A DNA stretch of 63,997 nucleotides, the filler included, from Sphacelaria rigidula (lineage: Eukaryota): the NCBI GenBank assembly GCA_964200075.2. It is 4 parts of 4 records of this genome, joined end to end, with 100 filler letters (N's around TTAATTAATTAA, not from the genome) between each part and the next. Parts side by side here need not be neighbours in the genome. Positions count along the whole stretch, not along the records: positions 1 to 15,956 come from CAXNAA020001543.1; 3 more parts are not named here. One strand, 5' to 3'. Positions within the stretch are counted from its first letter, which is position 1. Each line of letters opens with the position of its first letter. The notes beneath the pieces were generated by a model. The model did no database searches. It was not told where the DNA came from and saw only the letters and a list, made by a program, of their open reading frames with translations. The position numbers and the translations under genes are program-made. Shown in pieces: positions 6,801 to 48,159 of the stretch.

Positions 6801-9800
6801 ATCAAAGGACCCGGCTGAGCCGATCATGTTGTTGTAGAAGAGTAGTATTACATAGCTTGACTAAGCAAGTCAAGGAAGGAAAAGAAGAAAGAGAAAGAAG
6901 TGAACTCGTGTGGCTACCCAACACCGTGGTAAGCGGAGCTCCCAGACATCGCGTACATGAGTACAAGGCATACGCCTACTAAGGTATCAAATCCCACCGC
7001 ATGTAACTGTCATAACCCGTGAAGACGGATACATCTGTACCGTGGTTGATCTATACTGTTGACTACACTGAAAAGGCTGTTCACACCAACACATCTCTGG
7101 TGGTTGAACTGACCATACTGTTTGCTCCACATGATGTATTGCTTTGGGGATGACGCATGGTCGTCGCATCCCATTACTTCGCTGCTACAAGCCATTACCA
7201 CAGACCGACTGCTGTACTCGTAATTATTCTGAGGGGAATCGGCGTGGTCGAAGGTCTCTAAAGAACAATTGAAGAAATGAAAAAATGGTGATTCGTTTTC
7301 AGAAAAACTGTAGTGGATTGCTTGCCTCGACAGCATTTTTTTGTGGATGTTCAGTGTACCGGGCTGGCTTTGAACTGGGACTCTCTGGCTGTTGGTGTGA
7401 TTTGCCATGCTGTCCGCTGCGGATGATACAACACGACAGGTGGACATACATGTATGTGTTCGTATGGGCTGTCTGCGTGCAGTACCCGGTTTTGCTCATC
7501 ACCGCTATGTCATTCAAGAGACTCGAATAAACACCATCTACTTGACGTGTAGACCACAGCCGAGGCAAACCCTCCGGACGACGGCCTTCCCCACAGGGAG
7601 TAACTACACGATTGAAATATTTACAGTGAAGGCGATATCAATGCTGACAAGCAGCCAAAAGGACATTGCATCCTGAACAGGCTTTACGTTTTGGATTGCA
7701 TTTCACTCAGGGATTGACACTGGATGTCGGTCGTTTCCCTTCGATAGCCGACCAGACAGAGCTATTGTACACGCCAGCACCCGTACGAAGAAGGGGTACC
7801 CTACACATGAAAAGGACGAGGGACTATCATATTTCGCAATACCTTCAACTCTTTACAACGTTGACCGGGTGATTTGGAGCGCATCGGAGGAGGGCGTTGT
7901 TCTCGACAGAAATTTATCGACAGGGCCTGCGTCACCAGGGGCTATCTCAGTTACCGGTTGAAAAAACAAGCAGGAGTGGATCCAAGTCCCGCAGAGTCCT
8001 CAACACTGACCTAAGCCAACGCAACTCGCGCGTGAATCCAACCGCCAGCTACTTTTCGACCGTGGCGGCGACAAAATTTCTGGTGTTTGTAGCTGCTACA
8101 AGATACTCATGCTCGCTTTCACTAAACATAGAGATAACAGCCAAGGAAGGTCCACTAATGATCATCTGATTCACGCAGACCCAGGCCTGCGACTCAACTC
8201 CCGAAAAATGTGTTTGAATGTACGCATGCGTCCGGTCTTTCAAATCTGCTCTCAAAACGTTTTGACCATGTTTTTGCGGTCAAGGGACTCTGCCAGCGAT
8301 TGATCGATCAATCGACGTATTCCATTTATTGATCCACGACGAATTCGACCGTGCTCACAATATAGGCTCATACCTTGAGAGCCGTCTCGAAGCTGTAGGT
8401 ATCCGGAGACACACCATCTTCCACCATCATGTCCAAGACGTGCTTCACTTCTTCCTTTCCGTGACCCTTGGCACACGCTTGTGCTCTCCCCCCGGACAAA
8501 AAAGCACCAGACGCGCATGTTGTGTTTGAAGGGGAAACATTAGGAAAGGAAACATACAGGAGTCAGGGTTTACTGGTTTGCCACCGTATCGCGCAGGCCA
8601 ACGCTTGCGCTTTAACTCCGCCGGAAGATCTCACGCTTCATTTACCTGCATCCCACCCGGCTTCCGCGAACTACATTTGTGGTCACTTGGTCATTTCGTG
8701 TGGTGGCATTGAGCCAACCGCGATTGTAGCACGAAAGAGCAATCAGTCTTGGACCACCTAACGGCGTACACCAGACGATGAATTTGGCATACTGAAGGCC
8801 TACACAAAAAGTGTAGACGTGTCTTGTACTGCGGAGAGTTCAATATAACAGTAACATATCTGTGATTCGGGTTCGCGTTTCCGCCTCAAACAGTAAACAA
8901 AACAATTGATGCCATATGCTCATTTCAAGGCAGATACCCGCGCTTCGAAATAGCTTCCAGGTGTTGACCGTGCGGCATCCCTTCGGTCATCTTCACCCCA
9001 TAAAACGTTTGTCAAACATATTTGTGGGCAAGGAGGTTGTACGGAGTGCGAAAGTCCTGGTGATGACAAAAAGTTAGGCCTCGCAGAAATTCGATGCTGG
9101 ATTTAGCTTTGAAAAAAAATCGATACGCGTTGAGATTTTCAGCCGGGATACCGGCTGTCCATACACTACTTTTGGAGGCTGACTCTCACGCTGTTGAAGC
9201 GTTTGCAGATCTGGGAGCCCCGCACCCGTGAAGTCCACCTATACCCCACAGTGTTGATGTGAAAAGGACTCGCGAAAACAATGTACTGGGCGTGGAAACC
9301 ACGGCGATAATATTGCCCAAGTCGTACCCGTCCTACGTTATGTCAAAACGACTATTGTGCAATCACAGTAAGTCGTGGGTATCGTGGGGTTGCGCATACC
9401 GAGGAGACGGACGCCAGATTCGTAGCGCTCACATTTGAATAGGCAAAACTCGATTCGTCACCCCCATAAGCGCATGACACACCCGACATGGGGATGACGA
9501 CAACCGACAACGAGGAACTTGCTTGCAACACTAAATAGACAACGTTCATCTTATCTTCGTCCAGCATCGACAGCTAACTTCGTGAACGTTTGGACCGGCA
9601 GCTCAAGTGCTCCGTGTTCCGATTTGTAGCAACTTGCTTTTACACGAAACGTAACGCACCAGGAGGCAGGAATTGTAGCCCCTCAAGGTTGGCAAATATC
9701 CCCGACCACGTGCCCTCATCTTTCCCAAAATCTGCAGGGCAGCCTTGCTGTTCGCCGCTCGACCCTGGAGATACAGCTGCCGCTCGTAAAAGGCGTGGGA

Positions 9801-10610
9801 TGGAGAAGAATAATCTACTTCCACCCCGTCTTTCAGGGCATGGCCGTTACCAGACGTGGCGTGTGCGCCGTTGGGGCCCCTGTCATATTGACCATGACAA
9901 ATACCACGTCCGTGCCAATGAATAGCTCGGATACGATCCTCCTTCCCATCAGCGACACTGTTATTTTCGTTGTTGTTGCTGCTGCCGCCGTCGCCGCCGC
10001 TGCTGTTGGAAACGCCACCGCCAATCAACCTTTGCTCTACTTGATGATCCACCGCAGGTGCCGCCACCGTCGACACCTTTGTTTGCAGGACCTCCTCCTC
10101 GTTTCTCGGTATCTGCGCTGGTGCTCTACCGCTACTGCCAAGGCTTTTCGGCGGTGACGACTGGCATAAGATCTGACTGTCAGAGCCGACGGTTGCTGAT
10201 TTGTTTCCGTCAGCCGCTACTGTGCTGACGGGTGTGTGGGCACCCAGATTCGTTCTACGTGGAAAACGTGGTCGCTGATGTCGCCCATGTTGACATCGAG
10301 AAACGAATGCAACGGTGGTGATCCGTGGAGACGTGATCGGTATACAGCACGACCTGTCATGATGTCGATGCGGTAAAACCGATGCTGTCGTCACAGATCT
10401 CCGCTGAAAGACAAGCCTGTTGTGCAGGCTTGAGGTACTTTCGATTTCCATTACCTCTTTCTCTGCCTCTTTCTCTGCCCCTGCCTCTGCCCCTGCCTCT
10501 GCCGCTGCCAGCGTCTTCGCCCCAGTCCCTCTGTCCGCGATGACTCTCCTCATTGATCTCGTGCACAAGTCTCTTGACAGTCCCGTGCGGAGTGATTTAT
10601 CACCTTTCAT
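825..10610 (-). CDS. Pentatricopeptide-repeat (PPR) protein, multi-exon, 3' part incomplete
   Basis: Three exons encode PPR-like motifs. Exon 10610-9660 ends AALQILGKMRARGRGYLPTLRGYNSCLL|GT. Exon 8477-8374 is ACAKGHGKEEVKHVLDMMVEDGVSPDTYSFETALK|GT. Exon 981-825 is ILLQMW...PPSLFNYNCAMEAAARSGDLQATREFMRNMESH|GTAAGC. A further exon at about 7927-7844 is possible. Intervening exons, exon phases and the true start codon are not resolved. Confidence 0.7.
1220..1504. mobile_element. Foldback/MITE-like palindromic element
   Basis: About 1220-1343 is the imperfect reverse complement of about 1381-1504 (e.g. AATTTTGCATACGGGCGCTGTGAGATAT / ATATCTCACAGCGCCCGTATGCAAAATT). Non-coding and intronic. Confidence 0.75.
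2605..2951 (-). repeat. 3' LTR (347 bp)
   Basis: TGTTCC...TCAACA; direct repeat of 6745-7091; adjacent to the PPT. Confidence 0.9.
4969..5690. repeat. Diverged tandem array inside the LTR element
   Basis: ~231-bp units at 4969-5199 and 5200-5431 plus a partial third unit. A ~33-bp core CAAG(T/C)TAGGGAnnnTCAACCTACACTCCAAGGG recurs at 5069, 5154, 5300, 5388, 5559 and 5645. Confidence 0.8.
6745..7091 (-). repeat. 5' LTR (347 bp)
   Basis: TGTTCC...CCAACA; direct repeat of 2605-2951; followed by TSD CATCT. Confidence 0.9.
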
Positions 10611-10972
10611 GTCAGCTTGCCGACGATGTATAACACCCCCACCACGCCTTTCTCAGGAGCACTTGTTGCTCCTTCAATCGTGCGAAAATTCCATTTATTT
10701 ATTGAGATTATCGACCTCATGTTGTTTTTTTTTTCGATTTCCTCGTCAAAAGCGTCCCCACGGACGAAACTATTGATGATTTAGCCGCCTTAGGTTCTTG
10801 AGGGCTAAGGGGTCCGGGGGTGTTATACCCCATCATCACAAATCAAGTCTCTGCTGATTTGAGGACACGACAACACGACACTGCGTGTAGAGTTGACAGT
10901 AACGGACGGGCTGTAAGCTGTAAGCTGCAGAGAGATAAGTGGCTCCTACGTCTGGGGTTCCCCGCATCCGCC

Positions 10973-13900
10973 ATGGCCCCTCCATGTTGGTGTACGGTGT
11001 TTGCGGCAGTGGCATGTCTTTCAATCGCAAGCGGTGAGTGAAACATGCACCATATTATTGCAACTGCCGCAACAACAACGGTGAACTGGTGATTCCAGCG
11101 CGGAAGCTCGGCTTGCATCGCCTATTGCGTGGATTTTGTGCTTTAGGGACGGATTATGCATGAGTGATCCTACGATAGGGTTGGGGGGCGGGGGAGGAGG
11201 GAGGGGGGGGGGGTGCTAATTGCACCAGAAACAGGAGAATTCTCGCGGTATCGTATTTGGGTGTAAACGGTGTCAAGCAGTAGTACGGGTATGTCTCATT
11301 GATACCAAGCCCTAGACCATCTTTCATGGCGACGAATCTCGTTTCGTACAAATATGAGGATTTCGGTCCGTCTACAGGCCATTTTCTCTCGGGGATTGAT
11401 TCTCCGGACCTCAGTCCATTGGGCAATGTTTTTCGGCTACATATGAGAAAACCAAATCAAATCTCCGATTCTCTGGACGATGACTTCGATGTATCACCTT
11501 TTTGCTCGAATCGGGACACTCCCACATCTCCACTCCTGCATCTTCCCCGATTTTTTCGTGTATCAAATGGCCCCTACCCAACGTGGAGCTAAAACTCAGT
11601 AGCAACAATTCCCCAAAATGTAACGCCTCCAAAAGCTACGCACCGATTGTTGGAACACAGCGTACAATCCTCCAAAAGGCATCCAATGGATCGAAAGGAC
11701 CATCTCCCCTCTTGCCCCGCCCCGCTGTCGTTACCTACTCTCGCCACCAGAGGGAGGGGCGGGGAAACAAAAAGAGGGAAGTCGAGGGGTGATTCGAGGG
11801 TAAACATATACTTCCTCTGTCCCATAAGTAAAGGTACCTAAATTTGTACGGGCCCTTCACGATGTCCGATCGGTTTTTTTTTAATGAACACTACGGTGTT
11901 TTTTGGGTTAAGAAAATGTGTTTAAAATTTGCAGCTCGTGCTTGAACCATGCCGCCGAACGGCTGCAAAAAAAGTAGTCGGCCCAAAAATGGTCGTTTTT
12001 TGCCCGTTTCCGAGGGGGGAAAAAGTGTCCATTCTTTATATTTTGTAGTCGCCCCCGCCTTCACTGGGGCTTGCTGGCAGAAAGTCCCACGCGATTTAAA
12101 AAATAATAATAATAAAATGACACTTGTCTTCCCCTTGGAAAGGGGCAAAAAACGGCCATTTTGGGCCCGAGTACTTTTTTTGCAGCCGTTCGGCGGCATG
12201 GTTCGAGCACGAGCTGCAAATTTTAAACACATTTTCTTGACCCAAAAAACACCGTAGAGTTCATTTAAAAAAAAAGCGATCGGACATCGTTAAGGGCCCG
12301 CACAAATTTAGGTACCTTTACTTATTTATAGGACAGAGGAAGTAGTTCCCGACGCACCATGTACGCTTACACCAATTCCAACACAAGCCCATTGGAACCG
12401 GGGACAACGAAGCCATACGTGCTGAATTCAGTCCTGGTTGCACGTTCGGTGATGTTTCACAACTCCACGTTGCACCTTTCTCACCGCGAACACGCGCCAT
12501 GCACCCAAGACACCAGGTCGGAAAGCCGCTCGCCGGCAACACCTCTGCACAAGAATATATGTCATTCGCACACCATTACCATACACCAGCATCCACTCAA
12601 CAGCAACTGATCGCACGCCTCTTCTCAGGTTTCGTCGTTAGCCCGCACGGATCAGTCCCACCGCCGCCGACACCGAGGGGTGCATCTCGAACGGCGGGTT
12701 CTACAGCGGTAGAGGCATCACCCAGTGTTGCCGTTGGCGCAACAACCAGCTTGCCGGGACTGTCGGTACAGGTGTTGTCGCCGAGAGAAGCCACCGTCGT
12801 GTTGCCTCGAACATTTGGGCGGACGAGCTACTTGGTCCGGTGGTTCGAAGAGGGAAAGCCGTCCGTGTTCGATCAGGTACGGTGCATACTTCAAGGAATC
12901 TCTGGCGCAACTCGTACCGCTCAGTTGCATAGCTCGCACAGCACCATTTGGTGAAAATGAAATCACCAGTCAATCTTGGAAGGTTCTTATATTCTAAGAA
13001 GAAGGACACACCGCTCAGTACCACAGAAACGAAATGGCCGGGTAACCTGCAAGTATTGTCTACCAGAAATTCGATCTCACTGGGTATCTGGCTCACCTTT
13101 ACAACTGTTGATGCTCGGTGTCGCCTGTTAGGGTATTGCCGGGCGTGCGATACGGCGTCTTCTCGATCAGATAGATGATACGTACATACGAAGTAGTGGA
13201 ACCCAGCCCGGGCACGGCAGTGATACCTGGTTGGGAAGGTCATGTTCCTGATGGTTTGCCACCGCCATAATCGTGATATTGATGCATTGATCGATTGATT
13301 GTCGCACATATTTGAACAACCCCAACCTGATTCAGGAACTTTGTTGAAGAGGCACAAAGAAACATCGCGATGAAACTATCTTATATTTTTGGCGGGTATT
13401 GTGGGCAATTTAATGGCCACGCCAGTATAGCCACAAGTGACTGTTCAACGCGGATCCCCCCGCTTGTATTTTCCCGGCAGTCATAACAATACCCACCTCC
13501 TTTCATACTGGGAAAACAAGTGCACCATGCCGATGCAGTATGCTAAGAATCTCCCCCCTATAATTAGAAACGTTAAATACACAGTGTACAATACCGTTCT
13601 GCGGAGCATGTCCCCACCCATTCTGCCCCGCATCTGAGACATGGCAGACCACAACGTCTCTACCATCTCACGTCACGTTGACGGGCCTTTCACCTGGAAG
13701 CCGCTACGTCGTGCGAGTACGAGAGACAGGGGACGGGGCGGTGGAGGCAGCACCGATGGACGTGAATTTCTCCACACCCGAGGTGTGTGTGTGTGCGCGC
13801 GCGCGCGTGTGTGTGTGTGTGTGTAAACGTTTGCATGTGCTGATATGTACCATGCACCGCGATTCCGGGGAGGAAGCGTAACATAGTTTCGCCCTAAATA

Positions 13901-14447
13901 TATATACTTCGCTTATCCTGAATTTTTGGTTAATCAGTTGGTGGCTCATCTCGCAGTTGGTGGCATATCTCATGCTCCGCTCGAGTTAGTTACCCGCCGT
14001 ATAGGGCAATGGGTTAGATGGGGCGACTAGAATAAGCCCATCGACGGTGAAATATCCTATGCCAACGCTTGACTTGATTTTTTTTTCAATTGGCACGTGC
14101 ACGGAATGATGAAAGCTGTCAACCGTACATGCACCGACGACGTCCTCGGCAAGAGGCCGAAGGTCTCAGGAGACACGGTATCACACAATTCCACTGTAAT
14201 TTCAGCTTGAAGTCGGTTACAAAACGTTGTTAACGAGATTCCTAACAACACTCCAAATCGTCACATATACCACGGGTCATAAATCGCCTCGATTCTGTCT
14301 TCTGCAGGCCGAAGGTAATGTCTCGGGCGAATTGACGGAGCTCTCGCGCTTGGAGATACGTGTAGGGCGATGCTTGGAGGTCAGCAAACACCCTGACGCG
14401 GACTCTCTTTATGTGGAGAAGGTGGATTTCGGGGAGGCAGAACCCAG
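10973..14447 (+). CDS. Putative plastid-targeted protein: FN3-like domain + EMAPII/Trbp111-type tRNA-binding OB-fold (3' exons not found in this segment)
   Basis: Four phase-compatible GT-AG exons. 10973-11033: [21 protein letters not shown]. 12629-12876: FVVSP...[39 protein letters not shown]. 13648-13782: [30 protein letters not shown]...FSTPE. 14308-14447: ...[36 protein letters not shown], the classic start of a tRNA_bind domain. Confidence 0.8.
11811..12342. mobile_element. Stowaway-like (Tc1/mariner-type) MITE with long TIRs
   Basis: TA|CTTCCTCTGTCC...GGACAGAGGAAG|TA; ~220-bp imperfect inverted arms; TA on both flanks; lies in intron 1 of the FN3/tRNA-binding gene. Confidence 0.85.
13783..13824. 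repeat. (GT)n(GC)n(GT)n compound microsatellite
   Basis: Directly visible, beginning at the exon 3 donor GT. Confidence 0.9.
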
Positions 14448-14654
14448 GTGACCTAACGCGACTCCGCTCTGTGAGATTGGCATTCTCCGAGGGTAGGTTG
14501 TTGCCCTAAGGTGCAGATGCTTTTCAAATCGTGTCTCACGGTTTGTGCGGATATACCTGCATGGTATTTTGTTTTGTCGAAATCAACCCCCACCCCCTGT
14601 TCGGGACGAGTCCGCAGTCTCAGAAGATCAACTCATATCTTCTCCAGTACCTTC

Positions 14655-14975
14655 GTGACTTGAAACAATGTTTTCGTGAGATTGAGAGTAGAGGATGCGA
14701 TTGAGAGTGAAAAGTAGTCAATTAGTGCATGATTCGTTTCAGTTCCGAACTGACCCTCCACGAGGCCCAATATACTTTCTGTAGTAGCTTGGCACTGACG
14801 CCCTTGATATCCCTGAGTAGGATATCGACGTGTAGCTGTAAGCACACGCCAGTGATGGAGGCAAAGAAAAAATCACACACGAAATGAAAAATTGGCCAAG
14901 TTAGAGCGAATCATCAAATCTACTCTCAATAAGCGCTCTACTCTCAATCTCACGAAAACGTTGCTTTGAACGTTT
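14655..14975. mobile_element. Foldback element
   Basis: GTTTTCGTGAGATTGAGAGTAGAG (~14670) is the reverse complement of CTCTACTCTCAATCTCACGAAAAC (~14936); weaker similarity extends inward. Boundaries are approximate. Confidence 0.6.
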
Positions 14976-15213
14976 TGCTCAGCTTCTGGATCAGTACCCC
15001 CGCACCCCCTCAACTCCCATGAAATCACTGTTGACCGGCTGTTGTAAGCGTGTTTTGTTATCGATATCGTGCCAGATCTTTCCGACGGCGGATTTTCAAA
15101 CAGTATGACATGTTTCTGGGTAGCGTCTGGCTTGTACAGAATGAATTGCACAAAATAATCGTGCAGTACAGGCTGGGCCGCCGAAGATTCGAACAGGAAT
15201 GTTGACAAGCGAG

Positions 15214-15836
15214 TCTTAAGCTCAATTTTGGATCGTTTTCGATTAATTTTTGGCACGATGTACAGGACGTACATGCAAAGACCCTGAAAATCCCCCCCCC
15301 GTATTTTCTTTTCTTCTTCGTGAATTATTGGCGATTTAGTTCCGAAAAACTGTTCTGAAATGTTCCGTCGCCGATAACTCACGAAAAAAACAAAACAAAA
15401 CACGGGGGGAGATTTTCGGGGTCTTTGCATGTACGTCCTGTACATCATGTGAAAAAATCATCGAAAACAATCCAAAATTAAGCGAAGAATACGTGTCATT
15501 CCGTCGACAACCGGTTACTGTAATATATGGAGGTGGACCAATTACGAATAGTTCAAACGCATTTATGCTGTTCAATTTCAAGCTGTTTTCGATGAAATTT
15601 TGATACGATGTACAGAACGTATGTGCGAATACCGAACCTTTCTTCCTATGTTTTTTCTTTTTCTTCGTGAGTTATTGGCGGTTTAGTTCCGAAAAACTGT
15701 TCTGAAATGTTTCGTCGCCAATAACTCACGAAGAAAAAAAAAAAACACACACACACACAGGAGGAACGAAGGGGTGTCCGCACACACGTCCTGTACATCA
15801 TGTCAAAATTTAATCGAAAATGAGTGAAAATTGAGC
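15214..15836. mobile_element. Two tandem related foldback units (15214-15488, 15570-15836)
   Basis: Each unit is an imperfect palindrome (GATGTACAGGACGT...ACGTCCTGTACATC) around a shared core TTTAGTTCCGAAAAACTGTTCTGAAATGTT. Confidence 0.75.
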
Positions 15837-15956
15837 TCGGGAATTTTGCTACAGCTTGTGCGGCATCACGCGGCACAAAACTGACTGTAACCAGAAATCT
15901 AATCTCAGCCGTTTTCTTTTGGCTAATTCCGCCGCACATAGTACCCTCAACTCTAT

Positions 15957-16056
15957 NNNNNNNNNNNNNNNNNNNNNNNNNNNNNNNNNNNNNNNNNNNN
16001 TTAATTAATTAANNNNNNNNNNNNNNNNNNNNNNNNNNNNNNNNNNNNNNNNNNNN
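15957..16056. other. Artificial contig linker N44-TTAATTAATTAA-N44
   Basis: An all-frame stop spacer flanked by Ns; identical at three places in the window. Confidence 0.97.
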
Positions 16057-16061
16057 GAACA

Positions 16062-19000
16062 TTAGGCGCTGTATGGCCATTTTTTTCGTGACACTTTTAG
16101 CTGGTTTTGGGGGGGGCTATCGTAGAAAGGTTTCCCCCCCCCCGTCGGACGCAGTGTGACGGGAACCCACGTGAACTCCTGCGTTACCGCCAACTCAGTT
16201 TCCCCTGAAAAAACCACGACAACCTCCTCATCAGACATCGTCGACTGTTCTATCATGCCCACGGCGTTTTGGACCCAGCGATCAAACGGGGTGGGTCCAA
16301 CAGCCATAGCGGGCCTTGCGAGCGACATGATAGTTTTATCCTCACTAACATCCCGATACGAGCGCACCGGGAACTGAGCCAACCAATCGCGACCCAGCAG
16401 CAGATCAAACGACATCGTACCCTCCGGGACAATATGCGTGTAAATCGCAAAACATGCACTCGTGCCTGTTGTCCGACCTTTGCGTGAGCCGTCCACGAAA
16501 CGGATATTCAAACGCACCTGTGAGCATGTTCTCAGAGGCACCCCATTGAACCCGCCCCACGACACGGGATTAATCTCCCGCATCGCGTCACCAGATCCAG
16601 CCCCGTACGCAACCATGGACAACCATACCTTCTCCAGGATAAATGTCACCGGACTCCCACTGTCGAGCAAAGCCGAGCAATCCCACATGCGGGTCGCCTT
16701 AGGCGCGCCAAACACCCTCACCCCAGCCGTGTTCCGAGCGCGGTCGATGGATACATATCCGCCGAAGACCTCAGCTACTTCCCGTAAGAACGTCCCTTGC
16801 CGCCCGCGCGGTACCTGACAGGGGATGGGATCGGGGGTACGAGGTGATGGATCTATACTATTCAAACGATTTCCCGACGGGTCTAGAACATAGATATGCT
16901 CTTCCACGCAAATCGGACTACCTTCGTCCGACACTCCAGCCACAGATCGTGCAAGGTGAGTCGCCTCGGCTGTACCTGTGCAATGGGAGGGACTAAATGG
17001 TTTCACGTGGTTGGGTAAATCAACCACACTGCTAGGCACCGAGCCCGCAGTGGTCCCCGCAGTGACCTCCTCCGAAACTGTGTTGAGACTGGTTGGCCTT
17101 TCCACCGAGGTCCTCCGCAAGGATGGTCGGTCAAAGCCTGGGCCGCCCCCGGCTGGCACGGAGCCCGGGAGAGCAAGCCCCCACTTGGTAGCACATGAAA
17201 CCGCCCCCTTCTGAGGGTAACGGCGCCGAGAACAACTTGAGCCCCGAGCACCGTGACGCGACACGCTTCCCTCACCCAGGACGAATTCACCTTTTGGGCT
17301 CTCCAAATCATGCGACGGTACCGTGACACCAGGACCGTCCTTGTCCCTAGCGTCTGTCGGAAGTAAGCAACGCTCACCGCGACAGCAGGCTTGCACCAGT
17401 GGCCCTTGTGCCCGCGCACCCACACCACTGTGGGAAGAGAGACCGCCCGGGGCGCTACTCTGGGACTGGTCCCCTCCCCGTCGGTCGATGTCCACCCCGC
17501 GAGACCGGCGCGTGGTAGACGTCGCACAAAGCGCCGAGGCTGCCTCCGTCTCGCAAGTATCCCTCAAAAGTTGATCAGACCCCACGGCTACCTTCAACAC
17601 AGAAACCCCCCCGCCGCACCTTTACCGACACTCCCAGGCAGACTGTACCCTGCCTCCTTGCCATTGTCCACGCTGTGCCGACGGGAGATGACAGAAATTT
17701 CGCCACATACGGCAGGCGCAGCCTGCTGCGGAACCAATGACATAGCCGACCGACCTTGTTGAGCTCTCTGAGCATCATGTTGCACTGACCCTTGTGCTGC
17801 CGGTAAAGTGGCCAGAACTTTACCGTCGCGCCCTCATTTCTTTCAAGGGTAATTGTCGATAAAGTAAGAGCGCAGGCGGCGCTACCACCGCACCCATTTC
17901 TGCCGGACTTCCTCCGGCGTCCCCTCACCCATCGAGTGATGTATTAAACCCGATTTATGTATACTCCTTCGAACACTCCGGAGCCAAAGTGTGGTCGGCG
18001 CTGCCGCAGTTGAGACAATACGGCCCAAATGCTTCCCGCGCTTTGTTCTTCAGCTCGCGGGTTGGGAAAGGCTCATAGAACGGAGGATCCCTGTTTTTGC
18101 CGAACCTGTCCGAATTAGCCGGCCCCACCACATACACATATTCCATCTCCCGATCCTCGCAGGGGAAATCGCGCATCTCCGTGATGCTCATCACGGTCCT
18201 GCTAAACGACCTACCCTGACCCGACTTCGGCGGATAACGGCTCCGCGCCGCCCCCCCACCAGTACCCTGCACGAGTCGCGTGCGCCCGCATCGTGTTGGA
18301 TCTGAACTGGTCTAACTTGCCCATCAGCGACTCGAGGGAGTCAAACGGCGTCGCACAATCATCGCGCCCCCCAAGCACGTGGCCACTAATCCCGGGGAAC
18401 TGGTCCTGAATGGCCGTTTTAATTGCTGACTGCACTTGCGCCTGATCCGGAGTCATCTCGGCCCCCAGACACTGAACATTGCTCACCAGAATCCGGAGGT
18501 CGCGCAAATAATCGGCGAACAAAGACCCTTCCGTTGCCCGGAAATTGATCAACCCCCGGAGCATAGCGTCAGGTGTCAGATTGCTCAATTCACGGCTCAA
18601 CACCCGCACCAGAAACGCCATAGCCTCGGGCCCAGAGGCCCCCTCCCCCTGCAAACAAGACACGTGAGCGATCACGTCCCCGATCCGAGCCACGATCCCC
18701 GCGGCGTCCAGTGCTCCTGGCCGCACGGCACGCCGCAAGTGTTTCTGGAGGGTCTTTTCCCAACCCTGCGTCCAACGCGTGGGATGGGTGTCCCCCACAA
18801 TGAGCCGTATTGCCGCTACCGAATCTTTCACTCCCTCCACTAACGCCACCAACTGCTGCATGTTGTGAGTGGACGATAACGGTAACTTCGGCAGGTTCGC
18901 CAACAAATGCAGTTTGAGTTTCGCATACCCCGGCGCAATATGCGCGGTATGCAACGACGGGGACCCATCCCCCGAGTCGGCAGTCCCCAAGGACTCTCCC

Positions 19001-32011: not shown

Positions 32012-32111
32012 NNNNNNNNNNNNNNNNNNNNNNNNNNNNNNNNNNNNNNNNNNNNTTAATTAATTAANNNNNNNNNNNNNNNNNNNNNNNNNNNNNNNNN
32101 NNNNNNNNNNN
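32012..32111. other. Artificial contig linker
   Basis: N44-TTAATTAATTAA-N44. Confidence 0.97.
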
Positions 32112-48059: not shown

Positions 48060-48159
48060 NNNNNNNNNNNNNNNNNNNNNNNNNNNNNNNNNNNNNNNNN
48101 NNNTTAATTAATTAANNNNNNNNNNNNNNNNNNNNNNNNNNNNNNNNNNNNNNNNNNNN
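48060..48159. other. Artificial contig linker
   Basis: N44-TTAATTAATTAA-N44. Confidence 0.97.

Follow-up and report, generated by a model that had tools for sequence, protein, structure and literature searches.

An expressed gene of Sphacelaria rigidula for a predicted plastid protein that joins a fibronectin type III domain to an EMAPII-type tRNA-binding domain

A window of 63,997 bases from Sphacelaria rigidula (assembly GCA_964200075.2), by which we mean the whole stretch of DNA analysed here, carries on its plus strand four coding exons, at 10973-14447, that form the front of an expressed nuclear gene of a brown alga or a close relative. The encoded product has a predicted plastid presequence, one fibronectin type III (FN3) domain and the start of a tRNA-binding domain of the EMAPII/Trbp111 type, and we regard both the gene model and this architecture as practically certain. 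The reading that we favour, with a probability of about 0.6, is that the complete protein would bind the 3' ends of tRNAs in the plastid and use its FN3 domain as a docking module. In the following we present the gene and its splicing, the domains and targeting signals of its product, the putative tRNA 3'-end pocket and the occurrence of the family in other algae, and weigh the alternatives against the evidence that bears on each.

Results

Structure of the gene

The window is made up of four pieces of ~16 kb, the first of which ends at 15956. They are separated by N blocks at 15957-16056, 32012-32111 and 48060-48159, each consisting of an N-run, ttaattaattaa and a further N-run, and sequences that face each other across a block are not real neighbours. 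Since the window consists of joined pieces with N linkers, the gene is cut at 15956. Its reading frame starts with an ATG at 10973, which stands in a GCC-ATG-G context; in the open frame 10802-11041 no other in-frame ATG separates it from the upstream stop. Four exons of 61, 248, 135 and 140 nt (10973-11033, 12629-12876, 13648-13782 and 14308-14447) join in frame to give 194 stop-free codons plus two bases, and all introns have GT..AG borders. A preliminary description of this DNA had claimed these four exons, and its coordinates proved exact to the base: splice sites and frame agree, and the translations match the protein that it quoted. The features of the gene are given below, where X1, X2 and X3 are RNA-like sequencing runs, HMM stands for hidden Markov model, and P0013, of 316 aa, is the closest full-length homologue.

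10903-10972, plus strand: 5' untranslated region, minimum extent; an X1 contig with the exon 1-exon 2 joint covers 10903-11032
10973-11033, plus strand: coding part of exon 1; Met and the hydrophobic core of the predicted signal peptide, as far as ..CLSIAS and the first base of Gly; donor G|gtgagt
11034-12628, plus strand: intron 1, 1595 nt; GT..AG joint in contigs; contains a palindromic element of ~500 nt, resembling a miniature inverted-repeat transposable element (MITE), at 11824-12325
12629-12876, plus strand: exon 2; 50% identity to P0013 residues 18-103 (tblastn)
12877-13647, plus strand: intron 2, 771 nt; GT..AG joint in X1, X2 and X3; partly retained
13648-13782, plus strand: exon 3, second half of the FN3 domain, to ..FSTPE; Pfam fn3 and family FN3 HMM
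13783-14307, plus strand: intron 3, 525 nt; contigs of X1-X3; depth 0 in the unique bins 13942-14279
14308-14447, plus strand: exon 4, acidic linker, the first ~39 positions of the EMAPII/Trbp-type OB (oligonucleotide/oligosaccharide-binding) domain and two bases of an Arg codon; Pfam and family HMM
14448-15956, plus strand: first part of intron 4, truncated where the piece ends; repeats inside and no further exon

The contig comparison began at 10900, and the true start of the 5' untranslated region may lie further upstream. In tblastn, exons 2, 3 and 4 are collinear with P0013, whose alignment crosses the exon borders directly (..FDQ|T.TSL.. and ..TPE|AEGN..), and over 191 residues the spliced product shares 64% identity with P0013. 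After ..EPR, where exon 4 ends, the orthologues continue with TIVSGLV.., and ~125 C-terminal residues are absent from the window. No open reading frame (ORF) of at least 20 aa resembling this continuation of the OB fold was found in 14440-15960, nor did any OB continuation beyond exon 4 emerge when the whole window was searched by tblastn with five full-length homologues. An apparent tblastn extension to 14652 was discarded as spurious because it crosses stop codons. An Rfam search of 10500-15956 returned nothing at the gathering score.

Splicing and expression

From a set of eight listed sequencing runs, contigs of X1-X3, which come from the same organism, and of the DNA run X5 were compared with the gene. 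The joint from 11032/3 to 12628/9 is present in contigs of X1 and X3, and that from 12876 to 13648 in contigs of X1, X2 and X3, in both cases with GT..AG borders. Single contigs of X1, X2 and X3 cover 13645-13772 together with 14306-14448, leaving eight letters between the two parts; this gap fits the junction 13782|14308 (ten exon letters, two of which fit either side), the letters themselves being unseen. The exon bins of X1-X3 had depths of 104-215, and depth was 0 in the unique parts of introns 1 and 3. Run X5, in contrast, had none of the splice joints and a flat depth of ~67. The preliminary description had asked for a check of its junctions against RNA: 11033/12629 and 12876/13648 are seen directly in the RNA-like contigs, and at 13782/14308 the contigs are as it predicted. 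It had also named an exon 4 unconnected to the upstream exons as a way in which its reading might fail, and the contigs of X1-X3 join this exon to them, whereas those of X5 do not.

The contigs that contain exons 3 and 4 are 890, 905 and 957 nt long in X1, X2 and X3, respectively, and just 279 nt of each lie on the window. Because they exceed their 279-nt match in this way, the transcript extends ~611-678 nt outside the window. A form retaining intron 2 was also observed, with contigs running straight through 12847-13674 at a depth of 11-15 compared with 115-250 for the exons, ~5-10% of exon depth; in it the open frame would close 25 codons past the start of the intron. No such retained-intron cover was present in X1-X3 over the unique parts of introns 1 and 3. 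A (GT)n/(GC)n microsatellite at 13783-13826, which begins exactly at the intron 3 donor, was skipped as a repeat in the read comparison.

These results bear on whether the locus is a truncated or decaying copy instead of a working gene, as might be supposed from the 194 codons visible, the repeats in which the piece ends and the minor form that keeps intron 2. The truncation, however, is an artefact of the N linkers that occur about every 16 kb, while the exons are open, conserved and well covered and the spliced contigs continue past exon 4; we consider decay extremely improbable. An explanation of the exons as a chance ORF pattern was rejected on the evidence of the spliced contigs and the orthologues.

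Domains of the product and its homologues

When the exons were submitted to Pfam singly, exon 4 matched tRNA_bind (PF01588) at 30.4 bits against a cut-off of 27, over model positions 1-29 of 96, exon 3 matched fn3 (PF00041) with an E-value of 3.1e-4 and 21.3 bits, under the cut-off of 25, and exon 2 gave no match. Family HMMs for the FN3 and EMAPII domains were then built from 44 homologues, with the window left out. The FN3 model matched residues 65-151 of the spliced product (HMM positions 3-83 of 90; E 1.4e-24) and also the single exons, namely exon 2 at residues 43-78 (E 3.5e-7) and exon 3 at positions 41-80 of 90 (E 2.3e-11). The EMAPII model matched residues 156-194 over its positions 1-39 of 166. 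A search with exon 4 among longer proteins gave 153 matches at E<=0.001 out of 184 candidates, at the top of which stand brown-algal proteins of 274-363 aa with 85-93% identity over the exon. In these orthologues a presequence at the N-terminus is followed by a single FN3 domain, a short acidic linker and, as the last element, a complete EMAPII-type domain. Pfam found tRNA_bind in all 44 family members and fn3 in 41 at E<=0.01 (best 1.7e-8), and it found a synthetase family in none of the 44. The possibility that the downstream exons belong to an ordinary synthetase, against which the preliminary description had cautioned, is rejected: the orthologues stop after the EMAPII domain and have no catalytic domain.

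The window's own product is incomplete, and an AlphaFold2 model of P0013, based on the alignment of the 44 members, was compared (VIA-align) with 48,161 PDB representatives. In Pfam, this homologue scores 101.3 bits with tRNA_bind (positions 1-95 of 96) and 24.4 bits with fn3, just under the cut-off of 25. Its model has a mean predicted local distance difference test score (pLDDT) of 83.7, with residues 10-55 below 50, seven strands at residues 62-141 (block pLDDT 91-95) and a confident domain at residues 152-316. The latter aligned best with the C-domain of human TyrRS (1ntg_A; Z 26.1, root-mean-square deviation (rmsd) 1.7, 164 residues aligned, 46% identity), followed by Plasmodium vivax p43-C (5zkg_A; Z 25.4) and Arc1p-C (4r1j_A; Z 24.5), CsaA and the archaeal MetRS C-domains coming next at Z 13-14. 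Residues 59-146 aligned with FN3 domains of LAR, fibronectin, Dscam, contactin and others at Z 11.6-10.3 (rmsd ~2.1, 82-85 residues aligned). Against PDB sequences, the family profile matched the TyrRS C-domain at E 1.1e-60 and, on profile positions 21-91, fibronectin at E 1.8e-19. A homodimer prediction with two copies of mature P0013 (residues 56-316) scored 0.00, which is no answer and counts neither way, and a look-up of P0013 in a protein atlas gave no usable match.

The FN3-like segment first read from exons 2 and 3 is thus backed by the FN3 HMM match together with the aligned region of P0013, which is modelled as an FN3 fold. Similarly, the start of an EMAPII/Trbp111-type OB fold that had been recognized in exon 4 is borne out by a Pfam score above cut-off, by the family HMM and by the orthologues.

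Plastid-targeting signals

Residues 1-21 of the window product have a mean Kyte-Doolittle hydropathy of 1.48 and lead into the sequence ..CLSIASG|FVV.., in which G|FVV spans the exon 1/2 junction, the Gly codon being split by intron 1. In residues 22-63, 36 of the 42 positions are S, T, A, P, G or V, with one acidic and two basic residues; the corresponding transit-like stretch is the disordered part of the P0013 model. In all eight ochrophyte FN3 members with complete N-termini, the hydrophobic stretch runs directly into a small residue and then F (the window product, P0013, P0009, P0012, P0017, P0020, Nannochloropsis P0166 with ..SASA|F and Chattonella P0162 with ..VNS|F). The N-terminus of P0007, P0016, P0018, P0019 and P0021 is truncated or mis-modelled, and these were left uncounted. 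The translation, the composition and the same pattern in the orthologues support the original reading of a putative signal peptide ending in ..IASG|F and followed by an S/T/A/P-rich stretch.

Members that lack a strongly hydrophobic start, mostly red-alga-like, carry an F within the first 15 residues in 54 of 62 cases, and in 48 of the 62 it takes the form [AGSC]F. In those without a signal peptide the presequence is short, with Phe at about position 3-9, and most of the exceptions have an over-extended or fused N-terminus. By a crude rule, [AGSCT]F also stands just after the hydrophobic start in 40 of 47 FN3-less relatives that have such a start. According to PMC2567999, proteins of heterokonts and cryptophytes need F (rarely W, Y or L) at +1 to enter the stroma; nearly all heterokont plastid proteins have the F, whereas periplastid proteins are without it. 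PMC7038456 describes an N-terminal F motif in rhodophyte plastid transit peptides that has been kept in secondary red plastids. Judged by these signals, the protein is probably located in the plastid.

An alternative is that the same protein is dual-targeted to plastid and mitochondrion, or is mitochondrial or periplastidial in some lineages, and serves dual-targeted organellar synthetases. Organellar synthetases of ochrophytes are often dual-targeted (PMC5462543, PMC4494062), and the red-algal presequences are short (~20 aa), contain Arg and end in ..R-[AS]-[SC]-A. On the other hand, the F right after the signal peptide is a signature of stromal import that periplastid proteins do not have (PMC2567999), and the rhodophyte F motif, which separates plastid from mitochondrial presequences (PMC7038456), is the one carried by 54/62 members. 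We consider a different or additional compartment unlikely.

A secreted or cell-surface protein, comparable to animal FN3 proteins or to secreted EMAPII, could also begin with a hydrophobic N-terminus; FN3 domains are typical of extracellular proteins, and the family FN3 profile finds giant multi-FN3 proteins. Red-algal orthologues, however, have a short F-bearing presequence in place of a signal peptide, in every ochrophyte member F stands at +1, ahead of a transit-like stretch, and the named hits come from red algae and from algae with red plastids, all of which makes secretion highly improbable.

A putative pocket for the tRNA 3' end

The OB folds of the Trbp/EMAPII type capture the 3' terminal C75-A76 of mature tRNAs and not the elbow, as the 2024 co-crystal study of Trbp111 shows (PMC11286949). 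There, the 3' CA pocket consists of K73, R75, I77, F78, S82 and M85 in Trbp111 and of K269, V271, M273, R274, S278 and M281 in Arc1p. The algal family has the motif N-L-[K/P]-P-R-A-M-R-G-x-x-S-x-G-M, which has the spacing of the Trbp111/Arc1p pocket; the mapping was made by motif spacing, not by superposition. Arc1p R274, S278 and M281 match the R, S and M of the family at equal spacing. In the 44-sequence alignment, R220, S227 and M230 (P0013 numbering) are invariant in 44/44, with M222 and R223 conserved to 90% or more. The Lys of Trbp111 contributes a backbone carbonyl, and a change of the neighbouring Pro to Ala has little effect (PMC11286949). Within the window, exon 4 encodes the stretch HPDADSLY, whose D-S probably, if tentatively, corresponds to Arc1p D226-S227.

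The same residues bear on the idea that the OB domain is CsaA-like, handling precursor proteins for export or import, or that it binds some other RNA or ligand, with the FN3 domain as the functional centre. CsaA shares the fold (1gd7_A, Z 14.4; 5zdi_B, Z 14.1; 2q2h_A, Z 13.1), and some conserved positions have changed in the brown-algal clade. These scores are much lower than those for the tRNA-binding EMAPII type (Z 24.5-26.1, 29-46% identity), to which the algal domain is far closer and whose C-terminal subdomain it has, whereas CsaA is without this subdomain. Moreover, the residues that hold tRNA A76/C75 are invariant or nearly so, and the nearest fused relatives are TrpRS and GatC, enzymes described below. 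A chaperone or other role unrelated to tRNA is in our view very unlikely.

Comparison with known tRNA-binding systems

Appended Trbp/EMAPII domains recurrently feed tRNAs to synthetases, and they organize the cytosolic multi-synthetase complexes of yeast, animals and apicomplexans. The human TyrRS C-domain (1ntg) and the C-domain of EMAPII/AIMP1 (1euj, 1fl0 and 4r3z) have the same OB fold and C-terminal pseudo-dimer subdomain as the algal domain, with profile E-values of 1e-60 to 4e-53. The TyrRS and AIMP1 domains are cytosolic and are carried by a synthetase or by a scaffold of the leucine-zipper or glutathione S-transferase (GST) type, whereas the algal domain follows a predicted plastid presequence and a single FN3 domain, with no enzyme. 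The bacterial Trbp111 (1pyb) and the C-terminal domain of MetRS again share the OB fold and the 3' CA-binding motif; Trbp111, however, has ~110 aa, forms an obligate homodimer and does not possess the C-terminal subdomain, and the algal domain is of the eukaryotic EMAPII type.

Closest in overall plan are yeast Arc1p (4r1j) and apicomplexan p43/tRip (5zkg), which resemble the algal protein in having a C-terminal EMAPII-type domain and are both trans-acting tRNA-binding cofactors. In Arc1p and p43 an N-terminal GST-like domain binds synthetases, and a basic middle domain of Arc1p touches the body of the tRNA (PMC11286949). Neither feature was found in the algal family: across the 44 members Pfam returned only fn3, tRNA_bind and weak fn3-like matches, with no GST-like or helical synthetase-binding domain, and the linker between the FN3 and OB domains is of ~10 residues and acidic. 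The analogy with an Arc1p-type cofactor drawn in the preliminary description consequently stands for the C-terminal EMAPII-type domain and fails for the GST-like and basic middle domains. Taken together, these comparisons place the FN3-EMAPII protein outside the Arc1p/AIMP1/p43 family, although it would act in the manner of a trans-acting Trbp/EMAPII tRNA-binding factor; it is not a synthetase, nor does it appear to be a homodimer of the Trbp111 or CsaA type.

When the EMAPII part of the Gracilaria protein was searched among longer proteins, 651 of 1042 candidates matched at E<=1e-20. The best match among long proteins was a bacterial-type TrpRS of the chromerid Vitrella brassicaformis (P0105/P0180) with a C-terminal EMAPII domain (64% identity, 205 bits) and a hydrophobic, signal-like N-terminal peptide; this TrpRS-EMAPII fusion seems to be undescribed. 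Second was Raphidocelis P0194, which combines GatC (PF02686) with tRNA_bind (54% identity, 197 bits), and plant cytosolic MetRS, diatom GluRS fusions and animal TyrRS rank behind the TrpRS and GatC fusions. In the Vitrella TrpRS and the green-algal GatC the EMAPII domain is covalently fused to an organellar aminoacyl-tRNA enzyme, whereas in the FN3 protein it is free of any enzyme and combined with FN3. By analogy with these covalent fusions, TrpRS (Vitrella) and GatC (green algae) suggest themselves as candidate partners of the FN3 domain; the fusions are the only pointers to a partner and do not show what the FN3 domain binds.

Distribution, relatives lacking FN3 and phylogeny

A profile search gave 1060 proteins at E<=1e-10 among 8000 candidates scored, of which 120 were listed. 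Among the matches listed, both domains occur in the red algae Gracilaria domingensis, Agarophyton chilense, Pyropia vietnamensis and Rhodosorus marinus, in the brown algae Undaria, Nemacystus, Cladosiphon, Scytosiphon, Pylaiella, Ectocarpus and Choristocarpus, and in Nannochloropsis salina, Chattonella subsalsa and Chromera velia. NSK_001683 is the FN3 protein native to Nannochloropsis. With the family HMMs, both domains were found in 73 of 175 database proteins, 44 of these being the training set of the HMMs and 29 independent of it. Relatives without FN3 include a second Pylaiella paralogue (P0057), Chrysoparadoxa (P0179), Porphyridium, Timspurckia and chrysophytes; those of Pylaiella, Chrysoparadoxa and the chrysophytes have a predicted signal peptide followed by F, a transit-like stretch and the same EMAPII subtype. 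In a search of a representative library, 123 of the best 150 rows were proteins of 1116-7327 aa with 11-79 FN3 stretches, and 27 had a single stretch, which in 14 spanned both FN3 and EMAPII. Because giant multi-FN3 proteins dominate the best rows, this search yields no usable family size.

A quick maximum-likelihood tree was calculated from 129 EMAPII domains (126 ingroup and three cytosolic-type outgroups), leaving out EMAPII matches of fewer than 146 HMM positions as well as P0018, P0019, P0022 and P0169, which are mis-modelled or near-duplicates. The 126 ingroup rows stand apart from the outgroups on long branches (Shimodaira-Hasegawa-like approximate likelihood ratio test (SH-aLRT) support of 96). 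The brown-algal FN3 clade of eight rows has a support of 100 and is separate from the FN3-less pair of Pylaiella P0057 and Chrysoparadoxa P0179, which has a support of 99. Along the backbone, 58 of the 126 inner branches are open; the FN3 label needs nine changes, at least four of them forced by starred branches, and several of the rows labelled as FN3-less are N-terminally truncated fragments. With this open backbone and the truncated FN3-less rows, the tree gives no order of FN3 gain and loss.

The combination of FN3 with tRNA_bind had been put forward as undescribed. We found no characterisation of it, and in that respect the claim stands; the combination is not peculiar to the Sphacelaria genome, belonging instead to a conserved family of the red lineage. 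Full-text searches found no paper on an FN3 + tRNA_bind protein or on a plastid EMAPII/Trbp protein, and the main texts of PMC5462543, PMC4494062 and PMC10813123 do not contain 'tRNA-binding', 'EMAP' or 'fibronectin' in this sense; the supplement of PMC5462543, on the ancestral ochrophyte plastid proteome, may list the family. Automatic database names include 'similar to Tyrosyl-tRNA synthetase' (Ectocarpus), 'EMAP2 precursor' (Gracilaria) and 'tRNA-binding domain-containing protein' (UniProt). From the sequence comparison, the Ectocarpus name appears to reflect likeness to the TyrRS C-domain only, and genes of this family are misleadingly labelled 'TyrRS-like' or 'MetRS beta chain'. Some gene models look wrong as well: the Ectocarpus models P0018 and P0019 skip the transit-peptide part of exon 2 and have small insertions at the exon 4/5 border, P0020 is among the models of doubtful structure, and the Pyropia yezoensis model P0170 is fused to ribose-5-phosphate isomerase.

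Discussion

In the model that we favour, the whole protein, judged from its orthologues, would comprise ~300-330 aa. An endoplasmic reticulum signal peptide, whose predicted cleavage would leave Phe at +1, and a hydroxylated proline-rich transit peptide would take it across the four membranes of the heterokont plastid into the stroma. These would be followed by one FN3 domain, an acidic linker of ~10 residues and a complete EMAPII-type domain, made up of a Trbp/EMAPII OB fold and a C-terminal subdomain in place of the dimer partner of Trbp111. Once in the plastid, the OB fold would, like those of Trbp111 and Arc1p, capture mature tRNAs by their single-stranded 3' CA end, and the FN3 domain would dock the protein on a partner in plastid tRNA metabolism, which might be a synthetase, the Glu-tRNA(Gln) amidotransferase or another factor. 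The outcome could be a higher local concentration of tRNA, provided in trans, or a shielding of tRNA 3' ends. The family would have originated in red algae, ochrophytes and chromerids acquiring it together with the red plastid. We infer the plastid location, the binding of tRNA and the docking role of the FN3 domain alike.

Several observations weigh against this model. The signal peptide and its cleavage site were called from hydropathy and motif reading only, and the red-algal presequences of ~20 residues, ending in ..[LW]R[AS][SC]A, also fit a mitochondrial processing site, so judged by sequence the red-algal members may be dual-targeted or mitochondrial. For the window copy, the exons with the pocket residues lie outside the window and the pocket is deduced from the orthologues. 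Brown-algal members have P-[P/A/T/S] in place of K-P (K73-P74 of Trbp111) and changed C-terminal motifs, substitutions that could mean an altered function, and their clade sits on a long branch of 0.53 changes per column. As to the FN3 domain, no result pinpoints its partner. It is absent from 102 of the 175 EMAPII-bearing database proteins, and since so many relatives are without it, it is dispensable for the core function. Finally, the assignment of X1-X3 to RNA is a guess of the run type, with which the depth pattern and the joints agree.

A bolder version of the model can be drawn by analogy, in which the FN3-EMAPII protein is the organizer of a plastid counterpart of the cytosolic multi-synthetase complex, with the FN3 domain sitting on the enzymes while the OB fold hands over tRNA 3' ends. 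We put this forward tentatively and think it rather unlikely. We know of no comparable tRNA-feeding system of the multi-synthetase type described for plastids. A tRip-like movement of tRNA across plastid membranes finds no support, there being no membrane anchor beyond the predicted, cleaved signal peptide.

The putative plastid-import signals run throughout the family, from red algae to kelps, eustigmatophytes, raphidophytes and chromerids. Together with the TrpRS and GatC fusions, the family suggests that a eukaryotic tRNA-end-binding module has been recruited into organellar translation more than once. If the protein did organize plastid enzymes in the way outlined, red-lineage plastids would have kept a tRNA-channelling device, composed of a eukaryotic domain and an FN3 adaptor, for more than 1 billion years. 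In any case it is a small and tractable protein with which to ask whether the charging of plastid tRNAs is channelled, what an FN3 domain does in an organelle and how parts of host origin were added to the bacterial-type translation of plastids.

Repeats and neighbouring reading frames

The palindromic MITE-like element in intron 1 (11824-12325) is of high copy number, the depth of the DNA run reaching ~1e5 over 11745-12082 compared with ~67 for single-copy sequence. Intron 4 contains a very high-copy repeat at ~14663-14963, with a summed contig depth of 1.2 million in X5 (against ~67) and of 18,000-48,000 in the RNA-like runs; loose contig ends are numerous at 14663/4 and 14963 and resemble element boundaries. 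Further along the same intron lie MITE-like inverted repeats at 15219-15483 and 15584-15837, together with two direct 100-nt copies (89%) at 15304 and 15651. One of the MITE-like elements has 166-nt arms (89% complementarity) nested in 61-nt arms (95%), and others have 99-nt and 50-nt arms.

Two further frames lie on the minus strand, and Pfam assigned no family to either. The first (9603-10652, 349 aa) is upstream of the gene, divergent from it and partly of low complexity. The second (16062-17621, 519 aa) belongs to the second piece of the window and contains ..LLDSGSP.., which we take to be reminiscent of the aspartic protease motif of retroelements.

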